Positions 1 through 9,448 of a stretch of DNA of 9,448 bases are shown piece after piece; the first letter of the stretch is position 1, and each line of letters opens with the position of its first letter. This stretch comes from a virus (Duplodnaviria > Heunggongvirae > Uroviricota > Caudoviricetes). A program made the translations under genes and the position numbers. The notes beneath the pieces were generated by a model, which had not been told where the DNA came from, did not search any database, and was given only the letters and a program-made list of their open reading frames with translations. The DNA lies in IMG/VR virus record IMGVR_UViG_2563366961_000004, positions 1 through 9,448 of that record, one strand, 5' to 3'.

Positions 1-295
1 AAGAACTGTTCACACTGTTCACCTTTCTTTTTTCTCCTTTTATTTCATAGTGATAGGTGGTGAATAATGGGTGAAGGGTGAACATTCGATTCTTCACCTC
101 CGGCATTCTGCCGGTGTGACTTGTGCAGGGGATTAATTTCCCGTGCTGAAATCACACCGGAAGAAAAAAGTTTTTTTTGATTTGATTGTTCACACTGTTC
201 ACCTTTCGTTTTTCTCTTTTAATTTCAGTGTGATAACGGGTGAATATACGGTGAAGGGTGAACAGTGGATTGTTCACCTTCGGGGGATTCAGGGA
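1..295. repeat. crr: crr-like cis replication region: two ~105-bp direct repeats (about 2-104 and 183-287) separated by ~78 bp, each carrying TGTTCACC-type octamer iterons in both orientations
   Basis: Seen directly: copy 1 and copy 2 align along their length (AACTGTTCACACTGTTCACCTTTC...GGTGAAGGGTGAACA...TTCACC). Iterons TGTTCACA/TGTTCACC at 7-23 and 188-204; inverted GGTGAANN copies at 59-84 and 250-265. In P4, as I recall, crr is two ~120-bp direct repeats with alpha-binding TGTTCACC iterons. Sits just downstream of the alpha gene. Confidence 0.65.
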
Positions 296-296
296 T

Positions 297-321
297 AAAA
301 AAAGACCGGCAGATGCCGGTC
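297..321 (-). terminator. Rho-independent terminator downstream of the alpha gene
   Basis: Stem GACCGGC (304-310) / GCCGGTC (315-321), loop AGAT; on the - strand it is followed by a U7 run (A7 at 297-303 on +). Lies 16 nt past the alpha stop codon (338-340). Confidence 0.6.
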
Positions 322-337
322 AGATGAGTCATGATGG

Positions 338-2671
338 TCAGGTTGTTGCAGGGTCGTCACATTTTGGCAGCCAGTCGCCGTAGCTTTCCTCTTTCAGCGT
401 CAGGTTGGTCTGTATCCCCTGTTTGGTATGGCGCTTCTCGTAATTCAGTCCGTATTCCTTCAGCATCACCGGCAGCCCCAGCCCGAACATTTTCAGACTG
501 AGTACATTCCGGTAGCCGTTTGCCTCCATGTAGGCCAGATAGGCGTGATAGAGGTATTTACGGTAATTACGCGGGATGATACTGGCGTTCCCCATATACA
601 TGCCGCTGGTCTGCGGCAGGGTTTCCAGATAGCCGATAAAATCAAACGTCGGGTCGGCATCCCGTTTGATGTTCAGTGCCTCGTCTGAGTTCTGCTGGGA
701 CTGAAGCAGTGACCGGGCGAGCATCGGGTCGCTGAACTTCTGCATCAGGTGACGCACGATGACCGCCAGCTCGCGGGTGATTTTGTCCTTAAGCTGCGGG
801 TCGCGCTCCTGCGGGGCTATCTGTTCCGGGAAGTGAATAATCACCCGCCGGCGTGACACGCCGCCGCTGCGGTCGGTGAAGCGCATCGGGTTATTGTTCA
901 CGGCCAGAATCACCGCCGGGATGTGCGTGGAGTACGCATCCCGGTATTTCGGGTCAACGGACACTGCATCGCCGCCGGTGATGGCCTTGAGTCCGGCTCC
1001 GTCGCCGCTCCATTTTTCCTGGTCCGGCAGGCGTATCAGTGAGAAGCCAGTTAACGCGGCACGTTCACGCGGGGATTCCAGCGTCTCGATGGTGGCCGAC
1101 GTGGCGTTATCCTCACCGGCCAGCAGGGTGGCGATTTCGGCCATGATACTTTTGCCGCTGCCGCCGGGACCGGTCACCTCCAGAAAGAGCTGCCAGTCGT
1201 AGCGGTTTGCCAGCACCATAAACAGTGCGGCCAGAATCACGTCGCGTTTTTCCGCACGGCCACCGGCGGCACGGTCAAGCCAGCGCCAGAACGCGGGGGC
1301 GTGGGTCTCCAGCGTTTCACCGTCCACCGGCGGGGTGAAATCCACATCGCACAGGGTGCGCATCCAGTGTGACGGACTGTGCGGATGGAACGTGCCGTTC
1401 TGCGTGTCGAGCACGCCGTTACGAAAGCCAATCAGGCGGCGGGAGGGGGCTTCCTGCTGCGGAATAATCAGTTTCAGGGTGTCCACCACGGAGGCCACCT
1501 TCCCGGAGGAGAACGGCGCGCGCAGACGCTGAAACAGCCCGGCCACATCCCGGGCAAAGTCCTGTGGCGGCAGCACCTTCCAGACACCATTTTCATAGCG
1601 GGACAGAAGCTGGCCGTTGGCATCGACCGCGAGCGCCTCGCCGTAATGCTCATAGATACGCATGGCCTTTTCGCTGGTACTCATGGCGGAAAACTCTGCT
1701 TCGCTCATGGTGTCGAACGGGCTTTCAGCCGGTGGCCGGATGGCATCGTAAATGGCCTTACGGGTGGCCTCCCCGCCGTACTGCGTGAAGGCATCATTCC
1801 AGTCACCGAAGACCGGCGGCAGGGCAACAACGCCCTCACACGCATCTGCGGCTGCGGCGGCTTTTTTCTGGCCGTCACCGCTGAGGTCACGGTCTGCGGC
1901 AAGGACAATCTGACAGGCCGGATGCTTCTGCCGGGCAAGGCTGGCCAGAGAAAGGAGGTTCACGGAAGAAAGCGCCACCATCACCGTTTCACCGGTCAGG
2001 TGATGCACGGTAAGTGCGGTCGCGTATCCCTCCGCTATCCACAGACGTTTTCCGGCCTGATTCTGTCCTTCAAGGGTGTGACAGGTGCCCCTGACCTGTC
2101 CGCCTTTCAGGGTGCGCTTACGGCCGTCAGCACTGATTAACTGAAGGTTAACCAGTTCGCCGCTGTCGTCATACAGTGGCACCACAAGGTCACCGGCGCG
2201 CCAGCTCACGCCACCGGCTCTGTGTGTGCCGGTCAGCATCCGGCATTCCCGGCCGGGAAAGCCCTTGCGGGTCAGGTAGGCGTTACCGGTTCCGGGACGG
2301 GTTTTTGCCATCAGGGTTTGTGCCAGTGCGGCGGCGTTCTTCCGGGCAGCGTCTGTTTCAGCAACGGCGGCGGCCGTCACTGCCGGGTCAGCCGGGGGCA
2401 GGCTGCCGGTCACGGCAGCCACCTTTGCGGCCGCGTCGGACGGAGAGACACCAAACACCTTTCCAACCAGTTTCAGGCCGTCACCGGCACCACACTGATT
2501 GCAGTACCAGGTGCCGCGCCCCTCCCTGTCATCAAAACGGAAGCGGTCACTCCCGCCACAGACCGGACAGGGCTGATGACGGTTTTTCAGCACCTGAATC
2601 CCCAGCGCCGGGAGAATACGCGGCCAGTGGCCGAGCGCATGGCTGACGGTGGCGGTTACGTTCATTTTCAT
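338..2671 (-). CDS. alpha: P4 alpha-type replication protein (primase-helicase with C-terminal origin-binding region), 777 aa
   Basis: 777-aa ORF, the length I recall for P4 alpha. N-terminal zinc ribbon CPVCGGSDRFRFDD...WYCNQCG; primase motif WIAEGYATA; Walker A VTGPGGSGKS in the helicase part. SD GGAGAA 7 nt upstream of ATG at 2671. Iteron clusters that alpha-type proteins bind occur at 1-295 and 5011-5114. Confidence 0.93.
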   Translation of the reverse strand: MKMNVTATVSHALGHWPRILPALGIQVLKNRHQPCPVCGGSDRFRFDDREGRGTWYCNQCGAGDGLKLVGKVFGVSPSDAAAKVAAVTGSLPPADPAVTAAAVAETDAARKNAAALAQTLMAKTRPGTGNAYLTRKGFPGRECRMLTGTHRAGGVSWRAGDLVVPLYDDSGELVNLQLISADGRKRTLKGGQVRGTCHTLEGQNQAGKRLWIAEGYATALTVHHLTGETVMVALSSVNLLSLASLARQKHPACQIVLAADRDLSGDGQKKAAAAADACEGVVALPPVFGDWNDAFTQYGGEATRKAIYDAIRPPAESPFDTMSEAEFSAMSTSEKAMRIYEHYGEALAVDANGQLLSRYENGVWKVLPPQDFARDVAGLFQRLRAPFSSGKVASVVDTLKLIIPQQEAPSRRLIGFRNGVLDTQNGTFHPHSPSHWMRTLCDVDFTPPVDGETLETHAPAFWRWLDRAAGGRAEKRDVILAALFMVLANRYDWQLFLEVTGPGGSGKSIMAEIATLLAGEDNATSATIETLESPRERAALTGFSLIRLPDQEKWSGDGAGLKAITGGDAVSVDPKYRDAYSTHIPAVILAVNNNPMRFTDRSGGVSRRRVIIHFPEQIAPQERDPQLKDKITRELAVIVRHLMQKFSDPMLARSLLQSQQNSDEALNIKRDADPTFDFIGYLETLPQTSGMYMGNASIIPRNYRKYLYHAYLAYMEANGYRNVLSLKMFGLGLPVMLKEYGLNYEKRHTKQGIQTNLTLKEESYGDWLPKCDDPATT

Positions 2672-2685
2672 GGTGTTGTTCTCCT

Positions 2686-3006
2686 TCAGTGCAGTACCGG
2701 CGCTTTTATGTGACGGGCACAGAGTTCATCCATCACAACCAGCCCGAGAAAGGACAGCGACGGCGCGGCCTTCAGGGGGCCGGATTCCATTAAATCTTCC
2801 AGCAGGGCACAGGCTATCTGACGCCCTTTTTCCTCACCGTGCTGGCGCAGATAAAAGCCTTCCAGCTCAGCGGCGATGGCCGCCTCCAGTGACTCAAGGG
2901 TGAGATGCGGGTAGCGGTGCTGACGTTCGCACACGGTCAGCCAGGCACAGGCGACAGCGCGACGGTAAAGGGCAGCACGTAAGACGGGCGGTAAGGGTGT
3001 TTTCAT
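2686..3006 (-). CDS. Hypothetical protein, 106 aa, immediately upstream of alpha in the left operon
   Basis: ORF with strong SD (GGGAGGAAA) upstream of ATG at 3006; ends 14 nt before the alpha start. Protein-like composition. Function not recognisable from sequence. Confidence 0.7.
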
Positions 3007-3141
3007 TTGTTTTCCTCCCTGTGACAGATGACTGCATTCCGTGCCGGTTGCATTAACTGATAAGGCATATCTGCGTCTCCTGAAGACGTGCGTATCCCTG
3101 CGCGAATACGCACATTTAATTTTTCGGGTGTCGTTTTTTAA

Positions 3142-3597
3142 TTACAGATAATTGCGGTAACTGTTATCCGGGGTGATTTCCGGGTCAGGCTCCGTGCGGG
3201 GAATTTCCCGCCATTCCCGCGCCACCGGTGCCGCCCGGCTGACCGGAACAGGGGCCTGCGGGTAAATATCCAGATATTTCTCCCGCCATTTCTGTAATTC
3301 CGGGTCTCCGGCCATTTCTTTCAGTACCGCATGCCGGTTTACGGGGCTGCGTTTAAACAGGTCAGGACGGTCACAGGTAAATTCCCGCAGAAAACGCCCC
3401 AGCGGGATGTCTGTGGTGCGCCCGTCAGCGAGGATACGCACAAGGATACTGAATTTACGGCGGTACGGGTTCCAGACAATGTCCGGGCAGCGGTACGGCA
3501 TTTCCCACGGAATACCGTCTTCCAGAATGCCGACCACGGCCACATCGGGAAAACCGGCAGAACGGTAAATCTCACCGGGCTGGGGAAAATCAAACAT
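3142..3597 (-). CDS. Hypothetical protein, 151 aa, left operon (size matches my recollection of a P4 'orf151')
   Basis: ORF whose ATG (3597-3595) overlaps the stop of the upstream 95-aa ORF in the sequence ATGTTTGA, consistent with translational coupling. No catalytic motif recognised. Confidence 0.75.
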   Translation of the reverse strand: MFDFPQPGEIYRSAGFPDVAVVGILEDGIPWEMPYRCPDIVWNPYRRKFSILVRILADGRTTDIPLGRFLREFTCDRPDLFKRSPVNRHAVLKEMAGDPELQKWREKYLDIYPQAPVPVSRAAPVAREWREIPRTEPDPEITPDNSYRNYL

Positions 3598-3877
3598 GCG
3601 TCTTGTCTCCCCGGTCTTTCTGCTGGGCGAGAAAATCGCGGCACAGGCCTTTGGCTTTCAGCTCATTCAGCACAAAATCAATATCTTCATTCAGGTAGCT
3701 GAAAATATGCGGAATGTAGAGCTGATGCAGGCCGGAGAGTTCACGGTGAATCAAATCACCCCCAACAAACTGGGATACGGCGCTGGCGCGGTTGAGCTTA
3801 TGGTAAGCCTCAATGCTGAGGTGTTCACGGGCGTCATGACGCGCTGAGACGGTCTGAGGGGCTTTTTTATTACGCAC
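3590..3877 (-). CDS. Small protein, 95 aa if started at GTG 3877; positional candidate for a P4 epsilon-like helper-derepression protein
   Basis: SD GGAGGT 5 nt upstream of GTG at 3877-3875; this start overlaps the stop of the upstream 65-aa ORF (GTGCGTAA). The longer 147-aa reading from ATG 4033 adds a Cys/Pro/Ser-rich, non-protein-like N-terminus and is disfavoured. Assignment as epsilon rests on position and size only. Confidence 0.55.
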
Positions 3878-4067
3878 GGGACACCTCCACCACCGGCAGA
3901 CGGGCAGCAAGGGAGAGCACATAGTCACGGACAAGGGAACGGCGGGCACTGCGTTCATCACCGGCGACGGTGCGAAGCATGCAGATACGGGGATGACGGT
4001 CTGCGCGACGGACAGCCGCAAACACAAAGACAAATTCAGGGTGTGAAGGGGTAAGGGTTGTAGCCAT
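3870..4067 (-). CDS. Small hypothetical protein, 65 aa, first translated ORF after the immunity leader (a kil-like position in P4 terms)
   Basis: ATG at 4067-4065 preceded by GGAGG with 8-nt spacing; it is the C-terminal part of a longer artefactual 214-aa ORF. Stop overlaps the GTG start of the next ORF. Function unknown. Confidence 0.4.
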
Positions 4068-4097
4068 GATGGCAGCCTCCGTTAGATAGCAGGTTAC

Positions 4098-4385
4098 GCT
4101 ATCGCCGGAGTTTCCACGCTCGATGGCGATAGCCCAGACGGGGGTGGAAATACCGGCTCTAACGGATACCGGCCAGCCCGGAGGCTGCCCCGCCTGAGCT
4201 ACCATTGACTCTGCGGCATAATGAGCGGACGCGGGCAGGATGCACGGAGTTCCATCTGCTCGACTGACCACACACCACACCATAATCTGGCGCTCTGTGG
4301 CGTTGATTGCGACACAAAAAAAGACGCATGGCGCGTCATATGTCGCCGTTAGATTGCTCGGGTTTCCACGCCCGGCTGCCGATTT
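4098..4385 (-). promoter_or_regulatory. P4-type immunity/leader region: two GCGUGGAAAC boxes (RNA sense) flanking one complementary UUUCCAC box; candidate CI-like small RNA and seqA/seqB/seqC-like architecture
   Basis: Seen directly: GTTTCCACGC on + at 4110-4119 and 4362-4371; complement GTGGAAA at 4144-4150; box 4110-4119 lies in the loop of a 9-bp hairpin (GCTATCGCC 4098-4106 / GGCGATAGC 4125-4133). In P4, immunity is an RNA (CI) whose seqB pairs with seqA and seqC on the nascent leader. Exact RNA ends cannot be set from sequence. Confidence 0.4.
4316..4337 (-). terminator. Intrinsic terminator inside the leftward leader, between the promoter-proximal box and the complementary box
   Basis: Stem GACGC (4323-4327) / GCGTC (4333-4337), loop ATGGC; followed on the - strand by U7 (A7 at 4316-4322 on +). 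Confidence 0.5.
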
Positions 4386-4400
4386 TGCGACAGCGGAAAA

Positions 4401-4430
4401 ACTATATCCGCAAATGCCGGAAAAAGGCAA
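4401..4430 (-). promoter_or_regulatory. Candidate sigma70 promoter for the leftward leader/operon (PLE-like)
   Basis: On the - strand: TTGCCT (-35; + coordinates 4430-4425), 18-bp spacer, TATAGT (-10; 4406-4401). Located between the vis stop (4466) and the first GCGUGGAAAC box. Hexamer matching only. Confidence 0.35.
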
Positions 4431-4465
4431 GCCAGAAAAAGGGACTTTTTGCAGAACAGGCATCA

Positions 4466-4732
4466 TCATGCGTCGTACCCCCGTTTGCGTCCGGCAATGC
4501 GGCCGGCCATCCATGCGGTGACTTCAGAGTGCAGCCAGGCCACATTTTTACCGCCAAGACTCACCTGCGGCGGAAATTCCCCCTTACGGATGAGTTCGTA
4601 GATGGTCGAGCGTGACAGGCCGCACAGGTGCATCACTTCCGGAAGACGTAAAAAACGCTCCTGTGTGATGTCCGGCAGCGGCATCAGTGGCGTCACAGGG
4701 GCGGGAGACGGGGAAGAAAAAACAGCTTGCAT
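4466..4732 (-). CDS. vis: AlpA/Vis-family small DNA-binding regulator/excisionase, 88 aa
   Basis: Core [50 protein letters not shown] is the characteristic AlpA-family helix-turn-helix region. SD GAGGT 6 nt upstream of ATG 4732. An internal start at Met17 (72 aa) cannot be excluded. Confidence 0.8.
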
Positions 4733-4834
4733 CGGGCTACCTCGTTAATGTCCATACAGCACCGGATAAGTCCGTCCGGCTTCGGGTAGCGCTTTATTTT
4801 GTGAATATTTTCGGCAGACGCAACAGGGGGGATT

Positions 4835-4852
4835 TGTTCCGGCAGCCTTACA
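4835..4852. promoter_or_regulatory. TGT-N12-ACA dyad, candidate Delta/Ogr activator site of a leftward late promoter (PLL-like) upstream of vis
   Basis: TGTTCCGGCAGCCTTACA fits the TGT-N12-ACA dyad that P2/P4 late promoters carry near -55. Lies about 100 bp upstream of the vis start on the - strand. Confidence 0.35.
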
Positions 4853-5010
4853 ATGGCTGTGCATTTTTTGTACATCAGCGCCAGATAGCTTTAAAACGCT
4901 CTGGAAGGAGCTGGAAAAAATTATAGTGAAATACAAATTGTTTTTTCTTATTTATTTCAGTGAATTAATAAAAATAAAAAGTAATAAACAGCACAAAAAG
5001 CCCATCAACG

Positions 5011-5114
5011 GGTGAACAGTGGTGAACAGACGGTGAACAGTCATTACTGCGATTGTTCACCCTTTAACTTACTGTATTACTTATCTTTTTTCTTATTGTG
5101 AACAGAGGTGAACA
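5011..5114. repeat. ori: ori-like iteron cluster: six TGTTCACC-type octamers next to an AT-rich block (about 4921-4990)
   Basis: GGTGAACA at 5011-5018, 5021-5028, 5032-5039; inverted TGTTCACC at 5054-5061; TGTGAACA at 5097-5104; GGTGAACA at 5107-5114. Same octamer as in the 1-295 repeats. Located between the divergent vis and sid genes. P4 ori is recalled to contain alpha-binding iterons. Confidence 0.65.
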
Positions 5115-5195
5115 GTAAAATATAAAAAAAAACAAACAGTAAGCCGGTTTTTCCTGCGACCTTTTCCTGGCTTGCCGGTCTGAGGATGAGTCTCC

Positions 5196-5213
5196 TGTGT
5201 CAGGGCTGGCACA
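5196..5213 (+). promoter_or_regulatory. TGT-N12-ACA dyad, candidate Delta/Ogr-dependent late promoter for sid-delta-psu (Psid-like)
   Basis: TGTGTCAGGGCTGGCACA at 5196-5213; centre about 80 bp upstream of the sid ATG (5286), compatible with an activator site near -55 and a short leader. Confidence 0.4.
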
Positions 5214-5285
5214 TCTGCAATGCGTCGTGTTGTTGTCCGGTGTACGTCACAATTTTCTTAACCTGAAGTGACGAGGAACCGGAAA

Positions 5286-6020
5286 ATGTCTGACAACACC
5301 ATCCCTGAATATCTGCAACCCGCGCTGGCACAACTGGAAAAGGCCAGAGCCGCCCATCTTGAGAACGCCCGCCTGATGGATGAGACCGTCACGGCCATTG
5401 AACGGGCAGAGCAGGAAAAAAATGCGCTGGCGCAGGCCGACGGAAACGACGCTGACGACTGGCGCACGGCCTTTCGTGCAGCCGGTGGTGTCCTGAGCGA
5501 TGAGCTGAAACAGCGCCACATTGAGCGCGTGGCACGCCGGGAGCTGGTACAGGAATATGACAATCTGGCCGTGGTGCTGAATTTTGAACGCGAACGCCTG
5601 AAAGGGGCGTGTGACAGCACGGCCACCGCCTACCGGAAGGCACATCATCACCTTCTGAGTCTGTATGCAGAGCATGAGCTGGAACACGCCCTGAATGAAA
5701 CCTGTGAGGCGCTTGTCCGGGCAATGCATCTGAGCATCCTGGTACAGGAAAATCCGCTCGCCAACACCACCGGCCATCAGGGCTACATCGCACCGGAAAA
5801 GGCTGTCATGCAGCAGGTGAAATCATCGCTGGAACAGAAAATAAAACAGATGCAAATCAGCCTCAGCGGTGAGCCGGTTCTCCGGCTGACCGGACTGTCA
5901 GCGGCAACACTCCCGCACATGGATTATGAGGTGGCAGGCACACCGGCACAGCGCAAGGTGTGGCAGGACAAAATAGACCAGCAGGGAGCAGAGCTTAAGG
6001 CCAGAGGACTGCTGTCATGA
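5286..6020 (+). CDS. sid: Sid, capsid size-determination (external scaffold) protein, 244 aa
   Basis: Protein begins MSDNTIPEYLQPALAQLEKARAAHLENARL, which I recognise as P4 Sid. ATG 5286 has SD GAGGAA 7 nt upstream; the ORF-track start at 5268 is an in-frame GTG 18 nt upstream and less likely. Stop overlaps the delta start (ATGA at 6017-6020). Confidence 0.9.
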   Translation: MSDNTIPEYLQPALAQLEKARAAHLENARLMDETVTAIERAEQEKNALAQADGNDADDWRTAFRAAGGVLSDELKQRHIERVARRELVQEYDNLAVVLNFERERLKGACDSTATAYRKAHHHLLSLYAEHELEHALNETCEALVRAMHLSILVQENPLANTTGHQGYIAPEKAVMQQVKSSLEQKIKQMQISLSGEPVLRLTGLSAATLPHMDYEVAGTPAQRKVWQDKIDQQGAELKARGLLS

Positions 6021-6517
6021 TTTACTGCCCGTCGTGTGGACATGTTGCTCACACCCGTCGCGCACATTTCATGGACGATGGCACCAAGATAATGATTGCA
6101 CAGTGCCGGAATATTTATTGCTCTGCGACATTTGAAGCGAGTGAAAGCTTTTTCTCTGACTGTAAAGATTCAGGAATGGAATACATTTCAGGCAAACAGA
6201 GATACCGCGATTCACTGACTTCTGCCTCCGGCAGTATGAAACGCCCGAAAAGAATGCTTGTTACCGGATATTGTTGTCGGAGATGTAAAGGCCTTGCACT
6301 GTCAAGAACATCGCGGCGTCTGTCTCAGGAAGTCACCGAACGTTTTTATGTGTGCACGGAGCCGGGCTGTGGTCTGGTGTTTAAAACGCTTCAGACCATC
6401 AACCGCTTCATTGTCCGCCCGGTCACGCCGGACGAACTGGCAGAACGCCTGCATGAAAAACAGGAACTGCCGCCAGTACGGTTAAAAACACAATCATATT
6501 CGCTGCGTCTGGAATGA
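6017..6517 (+). CDS. delta: Delta, late-gene transcriptional activator (tandem Ogr-like zinc-finger domains), 166 aa
   Basis: Two Cys4 modules (CPSCGH...CRNIYC and CCRRCK...CTEPGC); 166 aa as I recall for P4 Delta; translationally coupled to sid. Confidence 0.9.
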   Translation: MIYCPSCGHVAHTRRAHFMDDGTKIMIAQCRNIYCSATFEASESFFSDCKDSGMEYISGKQRYRDSLTSASGSMKRPKRMLVTGYCCRRCKGLALSRTSRRLSQEVTERFYVCTEPGCGLVFKTLQTINRFIVRPVTPDELAERLHEKQELPPVRLKTQSYSLRLE

Positions 6518-6590
6518 GGGCTGCCGGTTAACCCCGGCCGTCGCCGCACACCGTATTTTTATTCTTCAGCATGATGAGAAAGAGATAACG

Positions 6591-7163
6591 ATGGAAAGCA
6601 CAGCCTTACAGCAGGCCTTTGACACCTGTCAGAATAACAAAGCAGCATGGCTGCAACGCAAAAATGAGCTGGCTGCGGCCGAACAGGAATATCTGCGGCT
6701 TCTGTCAGGAGAAGGCAGAAACGTCAGTCGCCTGGACGAATTACGCAATATTATCGAAGTCAGAAAATGGCAGGTGAATCAGGCCGCCGGTCGTTATATT
6801 CGTTCGCATGAAGCCGTTCAGCACATCAGCATCCGCGACCGGCTGAATGATTTTATGCTGCAGCACGGCACAGCACTGGCGGCCGCACTGGCACCGGAGC
6901 TGATGGGCTACAGTGAGCTGACGGCCATTGCCCGAAACTGTGCCATACAGCGTGCCACAGATGCCCTGCGTGAAGCCCTCCTGTCCTGGCTTGCGAAGGG
7001 TGAAAAAATTAATTATTCCGCACAGGATAGCGACATTTTAACGACCATCGGATTCAGGCCTGACGCGGCTTCGGTGGATGACAGCCGTGAAAAATTCACC
7101 CCTGCGCAGAACATGATTTTTTCGCGTAAAAGTGCGCAACTGGTATCACATCAGTCTGTGTAA
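6591..7163 (+). CDS. psu: Psu, polarity suppression / capsid decoration protein, 190 aa
   Basis: 190-aa ORF beginning MESTALQQAFDT, in the sid-delta-psu order typical of P4; followed by a terminator hairpin and then cos. Confidence 0.9.
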   Translation: MESTALQQAFDTCQNNKAAWLQRKNELAAAEQEYLRLLSGEGRNVSRLDELRNIIEVRKWQVNQAAGRYIRSHEAVQHISIRDRLNDFMLQHGTALAAALAPELMGYSELTAIARNCAIQRATDALREALLSWLAKGEKINYSAQDSDILTTIGFRPDAASVDDSREKFTPAQNMIFSRKSAQLVSHQSV

Positions 7164-7199
7164 AACTCCCCGAAAATCCGCCCGTTTTTACTGAAAAAA

Positions 7200-7232
7200 G
7201 CCATGCATCGATAAGGTGCATGGCTTTGCATG
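7200..7232. terminator. Bidirectional intrinsic terminator between the convergent psu (+) and cargo NTPase (-) genes
   Basis: Stem GCCATGCA (7200-7207) / TGCATGGC (7217-7224), loop TCGATAAGG; flanked by AAAAAA on the 5' side (U6 for the - strand) and TTTGCATGCGTTTT on the 3' side. Confidence 0.55.
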
Positions 7233-7327
7233 CGTTTTCCTGCCTCATTTTCTGTAAACCGTGCCATTCCCGGCGCGGTCTGAGCGTGTCAGTACAACTG
7301 CATTAAAACCGCCCCGCAAAGCGGGCG

Positions 7328-7346
7328 GGCGAGGCGGGGAAAGCAC
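7328..7346. other. cos: cos site core: 19-nt P2/P4 cohesive-end sequence
   Basis: Exact GGCGAGGCGGGGAAAGCAC at 7328-7346, the cohesive-end sequence I recall for P2 and P4. Preceded by a GC-rich dyad (CCCGCAAAGCGGG, about 7313-7325). In P4 cos lies directly after psu, as here. Confidence 0.8.
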
Positions 7347-7380
7347 TGCGCGCAGTATAAGAATTAAATAGGTATGGATT

Positions 7381-9075
7381 TTAAAATCCATCAAGTAGCT
7401 GATTGATACCATTGCTCTCATCACAATTTATTTGCTCTAACTCAAATAAAGCACTGTCGTACTTTATTTGGGGAGTGTTTTCAAATGACAATAAAGATTC
7501 GATTAGTCTTATTTCTTTATCTTTATTTATGTCTTTAAGTGAGTCTAAAGTTAAATTGAATTTAACTTCGGGTTGTTTTCCTACTTCCATCATGATATTT
7601 GACTCCAACTCTGGATCAGTATTGAAGAATCGATGTGTCTTATGGAAATAACTAGGTTTTCTTGATTTTAAAATACTTAGTATATCCGACTTGATAGTGC
7701 TTTCCCGTGCTATCACAAGCCAATGGTTGGCAACCCCTGTGATGGTGGTAATGATGTGGGAGCCATTTTCACTTAGTTCATTAAAGGCTCTTAAGTCACC
7801 CTTGAAAAAATCATTTAGCAACTCATTTTCTTTATCTTTATCAAAAAGGTAAATTATTGAATTGCCGGCTAATGATATTTCAGCCTTGGTTTTTATAGTA
7901 TCGCAATTAAATTGCGCGGTCTCATTTTTTAATTCTTCGTAAGATGATTTTAAGTCTAAAAGCAAGCATTTTATTATACTTGATCTGAAAGATGAGTAAT
8001 CAATATCAGCACAAAGTGAAAATAAATTTCTGTGACGAATGGATTCAGGGCTGTAATATAGCTTTGTTAATATTTCTTTTTGGCGTTCTTTTGTGTCACG
8101 ACAGATAAACATAGCTGCAAAATATTCCATTAATGATTTGTGTGACCAACGAATAATAGCGCCTTCTTTGACAAATAATGGAACGGTTTCAATTAAGTCC
8201 TGAATAAAAAGAGATGGTGAAGTTGATATTCCGGGAATTTTTGAAATGATATTTTGCAATGTTATTTGCAGATCGTCTTTCGTAAACTCAATTTTACCTC
8301 CGTCTTTCAAACACCAAAAACCTAATCTCCTTAAGACCTGATGGAAGTCAGTGGAGTCTAGCTTAGAAAATTTTTCTCTAACATAACCAAGTTCTTTAGT
8401 TAAATCATGAGACTCATACAAAGCGTCAAATACTTGGCTATAAAATAACTCTCTTTTTCTTGGTATTATCGGTTTGAATTTATATGCACAAAATAATAAT
8501 GAAACATAAAGAGGTGTGGATAAAAATTCATTTAGATTATGACCATTCTCCAGTCGTAATCCTTTAATTAATTGAGATGAAATAGGGCCACGTCCATCAT
8601 ATCGACGTAATAGATCATACGCTTGATTCGTTTCTAATGGGTTGATTTTAAATCTTGAGAAACCATGTAGTTCTGATAAGAAATTATCATGACGAGAAGT
8701 TATAATTATTTTGCTTTCTGAGAAATTATTAGCAAAGGTACTTAGTAAATTTACGATCTTGGATTTGAGTTGTTGTGGGATTTCATCTATGCCATCGAAA
8801 AGATAAATAAAAGGGATTTTTTTGAGGCAGTTGTCTGAAATGTCTTCTCCTAAACCAAGTTGATGTTTCACCTGTAGCGCAAAATCATAATCTTTAGCAC
8901 GTCGTAATTCAATGTATATTGGAATGTATTCCTTATTAGCGATGCAATCTAAAGCAATTCTTTTCATTAGGGTGGACTTACCCATTCCTGCTGAGTCAGT
9001 GATTAATATATGATTGAAATTATCTAATAAATCTGCATTGTCTTTTATTAGGCATGTGTATGGTTTTTTTTTCAT
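7381..9075 (-). CDS. NACHT-type STAND NTPase (564 aa as drawn) with a ~230-aa C-terminal region of unknown fold; candidate anti-phage defence protein
   Basis: Walker A ITDSAGMGKST (aa 24-34); Walker B of the NACHT hhhhDGxDE type (IYLFDGIDEI); sensor-1-like IIITSR. AT-rich, unlike the P4-like core. The ATG sits directly on an A9 run and has no SD, and the upstream ORF joins it with a 1-nt shift, so this may be the downstream part of one larger gene. Confidence 0.8.
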   Translation of the reverse strand: MKKKPYTCLIKDNADLLDNFNHILITDSAGMGKSTLMKRIALDCIANKEYIPIYIELRRAKDYDFALQVKHQLGLGEDISDNCLKKIPFIYLFDGIDEIPQQLKSKIVNLLSTFANNFSESKIIITSRHDNFLSELHGFSRFKINPLETNQAYDLLRRYDGRGPISSQLIKGLRLENGHNLNEFLSTPLYVSLLFCAYKFKPIIPRKRELFYSQVFDALYESHDLTKELGYVREKFSKLDSTDFHQVLRRLGFWCLKDGGKIEFTKDDLQITLQNIISKIPGISTSPSLFIQDLIETVPLFVKEGAIIRWSHKSLMEYFAAMFICRDTKERQKEILTKLYYSPESIRHRNLFSLCADIDYSSFRSSIIKCLLLDLKSSYEELKNETAQFNCDTIKTKAEISLAGNSIIYLFDKDKENELLNDFFKGDLRAFNELSENGSHIITTITGVANHWLVIARESTIKSDILSILKSRKPSYFHKTHRFFNTDPELESNIMMEVGKQPEVKFNLTLDSLKDINKDKEIRLIESLLSFENTPQIKYDSALFELEQINCDESNGINQLLDGF

Positions 9076-9340
9076 TATCGTAATAAATGCTCATTGGCTC
9101 ATAAATATCTAGAAGCTCTACTGGAGTATTTTGAAAAGCTAAGGTATTCACAAGGGAGCATTGCCCTTTCACATTTGATAGGAAACGTTCAAGATTTTTA
9201 TTCAAGAAGCGTGCTGCATGTACATCTATTAAATAATTACGAACACTACTTTCTATGATAGGTAATATTTTATTCTTAATAACCTCCTTTGCCCATGGAA
9301 GGGATGCAGAGACTAATACATCAAGAGATACTGGTTGCAT
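9020..9340 (-). CDS. 106-aa ORF encoding a probable N-terminal module (~92 aa before the A9 tract) of the NACHT protein; separate frame, overlapping the NTPase ORF by 56 nt
   Basis: ATG at 9340 with a weak AAGG SD. Reads through the A9 tract as ...DNEKKT... and stops 18 codons later. Deleting one A gives an in-frame junction ...YYDNEKK-PYTCLIKDNADLL... with the NTPase. No known effector motif recognised. Confidence 0.5.
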   Translation of the reverse strand: MQPVSLDVLVSASLPWAKEVIKNKILPIIESSVRNYLIDVHAARFLNKNLERFLSNVKGQCSLVNTLAFQNTPVELLDIYEPMSIYYDNEKKTIHMPNKRQCRFIR

Positions 9341-9448
9341 GAATTATACCTTATTTTGGTAATGACTCCAACTTATTGATAGTGTTTTATGTTCAGATAA
9401 TGCCCGATGACTTTGTCATGCAGCTCCACCGATTTTGAGAACGACAGC

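Follow-up and report, generated by a model that had tools for sequence, protein, structure and literature searches.

The variable region between psu/cos and the integrase gene int of P4-like satellites was defined as a hotspot by Rousset et al. 2022 (PMC9122126), and experiments have shown it to harbour a store of anti-phage systems (PMC9122126). Bacterial NACHT proteins were tabulated by Kibby et al., whose Tables S1/S2 list the protein WP_001183326.1 as bNACHT22 of clade 14 (10.1101/2022.07.19.500537). In bNACHT11, the member of clade 14 whose mechanism has been solved, the C-terminal SNaCT domain uses beta-augmentation to bind several phage proteins that are unrelated to one another, the ATP-bound protomers form a heptamer that is stabilised by docking of C-terminal tail residues 633-639 into the neighbouring protomer, and an N-terminal extension of about 45 amino acids (aa) with the motif MDPIT causes plasmolysis (10.1101/2024.12.17.629029). 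A related "MEPIS" motif region is found in Bell/HeLo-like membrane-targeting domains (10.1101/2024.11.07.622273). Here we describe a gene of this type in a stretch of 9,448 nucleotides (nt) of viral DNA (Caudoviricetes; IMG/VR record IMGVR_UViG_2563366961_000004, positions 1 to 9,448), referred to as the window. The AT-rich block at 7347-9357 of the window is the variable psu/cos-int "defence hotspot" cargo of a P4-like satellite at ssrA, and holds one gene. We consider it probable that this gene is a P4-hotspot allele of bNACHT22/bNACHT24, inactivated here by a ninth base in a run of eight adenines (A9 instead of A8) and by an IS1 element, and that its intact form is bNACHT11-like in mechanism.

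The protein is already known, since it has been catalogued, cloned and challenged with phages as bNACHT22/bNACHT24. The window minus one A translates to WP_001183326.1, a protein of 652 aa encoded by a coding sequence of 1959 nt, and all residue numbers given below refer to this intact form. Of 5426 complete E. coli genomes, 25 carry the locus. The gene is flanked in each of them by int and by the psu side of a P4-like element, and the intact allele translates to WP_001183326.1 in 23; one of the 25 has had psu and cos removed by an IS1 and encodes a variant of 648 aa. RefSeq annotates the 1959-nt coding sequence as "NACHT domain-containing protein" under this accession in the two loci inspected. 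In Table S1A of Rousset et al. 2022, WP_001183326 is annotated "NACHT", with 24 entries as hotspot cargo (PMC9122126). bNACHT22 was cloned from E. coli ECOR36 along with int as a predicted two-gene operon (10.1101/2022.07.19.500537). The bNACHT24 clone (E. coli ECOR35, WP_087889289.1) starts inside IS1, and the sequence by which it passes from IS1 to the ATG, …gttggagtcattaccaaaataaggtataattcATG, is exactly that of window 9338-9372. The placement in clade 14 is taken from Table S1 of Kibby et al., and the facts attributed here to that work rest on the 2022 preprint and its tables. The sequence-only reading had proposed an undescribed defence system, and had itself said that an already characterised close homologue would remove the novelty; with the exact intact protein in the table of Rousset et al. 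and identical to bNACHT22, that proposal falls. The annotation thus adds little, the locus type and the exact protein both having been published already.

Most likely, the window holds a null allele that was inactivated recently, its reading frame shifted and an IS1 placed between it and int. Over 2058 bases, A9 in place of A8 was the sole difference between the window and two relative loci, one without IS1 (L001) and one with IS1 (L002). The extra A shifts the frame after residue 92 and brings a fortuitous ATG at 9075 into frame with the remainder, because of which a 564-aa open reading frame (ORF) appears. The ORF is therefore not intact in the window, and what had been described as one large minus-strand gene is split at A9 into ORFs of 106 aa and 564 aa, which overlap out of frame and meet at the run. 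The IS1A of the complete relative is inserted 5 nt 5' of the int stop codon and oriented like int and the NACHT gene; it lies 17 nt upstream of the NACHT ATG and parts the gene from int. Since the NACHT ATG otherwise starts only 3 nt past the int stop codon, the NACHT gene has no promoter region of its own, and the two genes are probably co-transcribed. A consensus scan listed no promoter between IS1 and the ATG. Both the frameshift and the window-terminal IS1 (the last 91 bases, 9358-9448, which are not cargo) had been missed when the letters alone were read.

The locus has been hit by IS1 more than once. In E. coli Z0117EC0116 (NZ_CP098192.1, L018 2435-5210), a different IS1 truncates the 3' end of the NACHT gene, giving 648 aa as compared to 652, and deletes most of delta and all of psu and cos as well as the C-terminal tail of the NACHT protein. 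This is a second, independent IS1 lesion at the locus. Defence pseudogenes are reported to be rare in P4 hotspots (10.64898/2026.02.27.708500), and the several independent lesions found here (A9, the upstream IS1 and the IS1 that removes the tail) form a small counter-example to that rarity. Such repeated lesions could reflect a cost of carrying the NACHT gene.

The NACHT module is genuine, as its motifs, its profile match and its modelled fold, a nucleotide-binding domain, helical domain 1, winged-helix domain and helical domain 2 (NBD-HD1-WHD-HD2), all fit a NACHT-clade STAND NTPase. The motifs GMGKST, hhhhDGIDE and TSR noticed earlier on the minus strand are all present, and the Pfam NACHT profile (PF05729) scored 34.9 bits against a cut-off of 26.7, NB-ARC and AAA staying under their cut-offs. 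An AlphaFold2 model of the intact protein, with 79 homologues in the input, had a predicted local distance difference test score (pLDDT) of 85 and a predicted template modelling score (pTM) of 0.81; in it the N-terminal 62 residues form three helices and the C-terminal 200 residues an alpha/beta domain. When the model was compared with the PDB by Foldseek, NLRC4 (4kxf, E = 1.2e-12) was the best match, followed by NLRP3 and NOD2. A search of PDB sequences with the intact protein gave nothing at E <= 0.01, and the cryo-electron microscopy structure of bNACHT11 was absent from both the sequence and the Foldseek matches in the PDB copies searched.

The Pfam profile search of the protein gave no match to any repeat family. 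The call of a STAND NTPase free of TPR, LRR or WD40 repeats thus holds, and of the statement that no repeat sensor could be recognised the absence of repeats stands; the C-terminal module, in contrast, is a named Pfam family, SNaCT5 (PF22711; 31.4 bits against a cut-off of 27). The N-terminal module, previously called unrecognised, is an extension of the short type usual for clade 14. Three parts make up the intact protein, namely an N-terminal extension, helical and some 60-95 aa long, that starts with MQPVS, a NACHT NTPase module, and a fast-evolving SNaCT5 C-terminal domain that has no repeats and closes with a conserved LDGF tail. Of the profile searches proposed beforehand, the one against Pfam NACHT supported the assignment, and on the Avs side there was only a match of the P-loop to Avs2. 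PADLOC returned weak matches only, to Avs2 (P-loop region) and mad8, and a search of NCBIfam gave no family for the protein.

Gammaproteobacteria commonly encode homologues that are some 650 aa long and can be aligned with the protein over its whole length. Across them the Walker motifs are conserved, as are the RWSHKS region and the very end of the C-terminal tail, in which L634, I637, D640, S642, N643, G644, L648 and the final GF are the conserved positions. The start MQP[VI][ST]L[DE] is kept in close homologues, and distant ones start with (M)LETITLE or MITLEN. Mean column entropy was 2.63 in the SNaCT region as compared to 1.31 in the NACHT module (p = 1e-36). In the set of close homologues, identity was 30-66% for SNaCT and 68-92% for NACHT; it was 66% versus 92% in homologue P0002 and 37% versus 78% in the Klebsiella relative P0006. 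A fast-diverging sensor beside a conserved NTPase is the pattern expected of an arms race. The order int, NACHT and convergent psu is conserved in the orthologues of Enterobacter, Citrobacter and Klebsiella, with cos lying between where this was examined.

The mechanism of the intact protein is probably that of bNACHT11, with which it is compared here by analogy. The SNaCT domain would bind one or more phage proteins; NACHT modules with bound ATP may next come together as a ring, which the C-terminal tail would stabilise; and the clustered N-terminal extensions would damage the membrane or the osmotic balance, such that the infected cell dies (abortive infection). A logic of sensor, switch and N-terminal killer as in bNACHT11 is supported by the hhalign match to bNACHT11 (probability 99.8 over residues 31-430), the MQPVS start, the LDGF end and the fast evolution of SNaCT. 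Several observations weigh against this interpretation. SNaCT5 showed no detectable sequence similarity to the SNaCT domain of bNACHT11 by BLASTP or hhalign, and the Pfam SNaCT5 profile did not match bNACHT11, so that no homology of the sensor domains was found by any of the three comparisons. Pairwise tests of the N-terminal region against bNACHT01, 02, 11, 12 and 23 were not significant, the similarity scores being reached by 137 of 2000 shuffles for bNACHT11 and by 75 of 2000 for bNACHT02. When the N-terminal region (88 aa) was modelled alone to look for a fold of the Bell/HeLo-like type, pTM was 0.37 and the model was essentially one long helix, not compact. The tables of Kibby et al. give no trusted defence phenotype for the sub-lineage of bNACHT04, 22 and 24, the "Phage Defense" column being blank for all three, and with bNACHT22 fewer T3 plaques were seen without the expected smaller plaques, a result distrusted by the authors (10.1101/2022.07.19.500537). 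The length of a homopolymer, on which the inactivation in part turns, may also be an assembly error in any single record.

The intact protein might serve in something other than defence against lytic phages, be it another conflict (with P2-like helpers, rival satellites or mobile elements) or the existence of a decaying passenger. This we hold to be unlikely. None of the three cloned representatives gave trusted protection against T2-T7, lambda-vir, M13, MS2 or Q-beta, the locus bears the repeated lesions described above (A9, the upstream IS1 and the Z0117EC0116 IS1), and the gene is always directly downstream of the satellite int. Those negative tests are weak, however, as the phage panel was small, expression was native and the bNACHT24 construct carried only about 85 nt of IS1 upstream. 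Moreover, the locus is an experimentally shown anti-phage reservoir (PMC9122126), the nearest characterised relatives bNACHT01, 02, 11, 12 and 23 all defend, and the fast-diverging sensor next to a conserved NTPase fits an arms race. The sub-lineage of bNACHT04/22/24, with its MQPV[ST] start and SNaCT5 sensor, is widespread in Enterobacterales, yet 0 of 3 tested members have a trusted phenotype.

If A9 were an artefact of sequencing or assembly, the source strain would have an intact 652-aa gene and IS1 alone would be real. Compared with the window query, the matched span was one base short in 24 of the 25 complete E. coli genomes, which indicates A8; homopolymers are a classic site of assembly error; and the window is the first 9448 nt of a draft scaffold (KE137131.1 of GCA_000408485.1) whose sequence is interrupted within IS1. 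The identical A9/564-aa allele was, however, read from 7 contigs, namely NCBI assemblies (two GenBank protein accessions), two unrelated Logan read sets, both without IS1, and an ENA metagenome assembly, whose contig has IS1. A9 is for this reason unlikely to be a one-off error; an extra base in A8 would also be atypical of short-read assemblies, the type of platform being assumed here. We therefore regard an artefact as quite improbable, and an inactivated bNACHT22/bNACHT24 allele continues to be the preferred reading.

The two characters, IS1 present or absent and A8 or A9, occur in all four combinations among near-identical loci, and at least one of them must hence have changed more than once. 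This would suit a contingency or recoding site, in which the A8 run at codons 89-92 acts as a switch of a costly suicide NOD-like receptor (NLR) on a satellite, whether by slipped-strand switching between A8 and A9, by partial rescue of A9 through transcriptional or ribosomal slippage, with ON/OFF or low-level expression as the outcome, or by an effector-less 564-aa isoform. Were it so, A9 would be the OFF state, in which the N-terminal peptide is left free and a NACHT-SNaCT isoform without the effector may be made, slippage back would turn the gene ON, and sub-populations would differ in their competence for abortive infection. The run is kept as A8 in the Enterobacter orthologue (84% protein identity), and poly-A runs can be sites of transcriptional slippage, for example A11 in Citrobacter tssM (PMC4256274). 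We nevertheless find such a switch very improbable indeed, as the Citrobacter orthologue has A6 and the Klebsiella one lacks the run, no Shine-Dalgarno sequence or ribosome-binding site was found before the internal ATG, A9 is rare (7 contigs, and 0 of 24 complete genomes with a readable run length), and E. coli RNA polymerase showed no deletion slippage on tested poly(A) runs of up to 8 (PMC6260861). A conserved phase-variation tract was rejected from the state of the run in Citrobacter and Klebsiella, and rescue of A9 by slippage of E. coli RNA polymerase was judged unlikely from the same report (PMC6260861).

The cargo is set off sharply from the rest of the element. The core has a GC content of 0.50-0.65, and from about 7351 onwards, up to the last base of the window, the content is 0.30-0.35, in agreement with the AT-rich block noticed straight after cos and with the coordinates given for it. 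The 19-mer GGCGAGGCGGGGAAAGCAC, which we take to be the cohesive end of P2/P4, marks a cos site that is the border of the P4 core and the cargo. From 6000 to 7327 the window is 98.4% identical to phage P4 (X51522), and the homology stops exactly at the right end of P4; the AT-rich cargo had no match in any of 50,697 phage records. The element encodes a P4-family primase, an Icd-like protein, Sid, Delta and Psu, and Rfam matches to the C4 RNA and isrK confirm that the immunity region of the satellite is intact. The integration site adjoins ssrA, and the gene order is cos, NACHT, (IS1), int, ssrA. The recognition of a P4-like satellite with its cargo in the variable hotspot between psu/cos and int was thus correct. 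The coordinates of the features are collected in Table 1.

Table 1. Features of the NACHT locus and of the adjoining satellite core, with positions in the window
Feature	Position	Strand	Basis or remark
C4 antisense RNA (P4-type immunity RNA)	4122-4209	-	Rfam, 76 bits vs gathering score 45
isrK Hfq-binding small RNA	4317-4394	-	Rfam, 72.5 bits vs gathering score 50
Terminator-like GC hairpin followed by T run	7309..7328	-	Consensus scan; 53 nt 3' of NACHT stop codon
P2/P4-type cos site, 19-nt cohesive end GGCGAGGCGGGGAAAGCAC	7328-7346	+	Exact match; 0/200 shuffles matched
Conserved C-terminal tail QLLDGF	7384..7401	-	bNACHT11 ends KEILGF
SNaCT5 C-terminal domain, residues 446-638	7426..8004	-	Pfam PF22711; presumed sensor
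RWSHKS, residues 397-402, conserved winged-helix histidine region	8134..8151	-	Aligned to FLHKS of bNACHT11
Sensor-1 motif TSR, residues 214-216	8700-8692	-	Nearly invariant in homologues
Walker B, IYLFDGIDE, residues 178-186	8808-8782	-	D182, G183, D185, E186 invariant among homologues
Walker A, GMGKST, intact residues G118-T123	8988-8971	-	G118, M119, G120, K121, T123 invariant in 79 homologues
Downstream ORF, 564 aa	9075..7381	-	Intact residues 93-652 after MKKK from fortuitous ATG; NACHT module and SNaCT5; RefSeq WP_001571806.1
A9 homopolymer, +1 frameshift at codons 89-92 (E-K-K-P); intact allele A8	9064..9072	-	T9 in window vs T8 in L001
Upstream ORF, 106 aa	9340..9020	-	Intact residues 1-92 (helical N-terminal extension, start MQPVS), then 14 out-of-frame residues and stop
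N-terminal motif M-Q-P-V-S	9326..9340	-	Resembles MDPIT/MEPIS-like motif of clade-14 bNACHTs
9-bp IS1 target-site duplication, one copy, AAAATAAGG, from last codons of int	9349..9357	-	L001 (no IS1) vs L002 (IS1)
IS1A, terminal 91 nt (768 bp in complete relative)	9358..9448	-	RefSeq annotation of a locus identical bar the A-run base; junction analysis

Some further observations were made at the IS1 end of the window. By eye, a promoter-like arrangement is seen on the minus strand at 9343-9371, where the end of IS1 gives a -35-like TTGGAG (9371-9366) that is followed, after 17 nt, by a perfect TATAAT (9348-9343). The TATAAT is native sequence overlapping the int stop codon, and together with TTGGAG it may form a hybrid promoter created by IS1. 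The -10 element of this candidate ends 2 nt before the ATG at 9340 and the transcript would probably lack the start codon, for which the candidate was set aside. The end of the window at 9448 is where the source draft scaffold ceases to align to complete relatives, within IS1 (L003 9223-9627). It is probably an assembly gap in the IS1 repeat, a boundary that is technical and not biological.

Elsewhere in the satellite, another AT-rich stretch (GC 0.37-0.40) without a long ORF lies at window 4800-5250, between the AlpA/Vis-like regulator and sid, and is presumably a late-promoter or regulatory region. The left end (window 1-330) is AT-rich as well, with a GC content of about 0.41 and a T8 run at 171-178, and lies between ypjA and the primase gene; it probably includes the attachment-site end of the satellite. 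In E. coli SCU-172 (L001 12597-20057) and one Klebsiella genome (L013 1-6531), a P2/186-like prophage encoding an integrase, a CI repressor, CII, Dam and the replication endonuclease gpA stands directly beside int of the P4-like element, placing a satellite and a potential helper in tandem at one site. Distant members of the NACHT family occur as single genes at other sites; the Proteus gene has an Ogr/Delta remnant and a transposase for neighbours, and the Pseudomonas gene adjoins a Bro-N gene. The Proteus mirabilis member P0091 (41% identity) is very common, being found in 610 blocks of the collection in the index, and always adjoins a 66-aa Ogr/Delta-like gene and an IS3-type transposase (loci L014-L016); its locus looks like a fixed remnant of a P4/P2-type element.

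Among known systems, AVAST/Avs was considered and rejected, as the PADLOC match to Avs2 (E = 0.0039, 12.9 bits) covers only 69 residues round the P-loop and the protein has no repeats. The NACHT fold matches those of the animal NLRs NLRC4, NLRP3 and NOD2 (Foldseek E = 1e-12 to 1e-9), including the winged-helix histidine region, although sequence identity is 12-17% and the protein described here has no LRRs, CARD or PYD. TIR-NLR and further STAND systems from the P4 hotspot (Rousset et al. 2022) occupy the same niche and are likewise single-gene STAND NTPases, but they use TIR, SIR2 or nuclease effectors and TPR-type repeat sensors, and the NACHT protein has neither. bNACHT11 (WP_114260439.1) shares the three-part layout of clade 14, in which a short N-terminal extension precedes a NACHT module and a C-terminal domain without repeats; the two N-termini can be written as M-[DQ]-P-[IV]-[TS], and the two C-termini as L-x-G-F. 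Its NACHT region is just 28% identical, however, and its gene lies on a ColE1-type plasmid of Klebsiella and not in a P4 hotspot; bNACHT11 protects against T2, T4 and T6 and its activators are known, neither of which holds for the bNACHT04/22/24 lineage. bNACHT04 (Klebsiella pneumoniae UCICRE 8, WP_004899960.1), itself without reported defence, is of the same sub-lineage, also 652 aa long and starting with MQPVTL, with 76% identity over the first 399 aa. In the Klebsiella relative P0006, which is assumed to be close or identical to bNACHT04, the gene adjoins int in a P4-like element, SNaCT is about 37% identical and the A run is absent. bNACHT24 is the same gene with the same IS1 junction, from which the window differs by A9 and the split ORF, and bNACHT22 is again the same gene, distinguished from the window by its A8 run with an intact ORF and by having no IS1.

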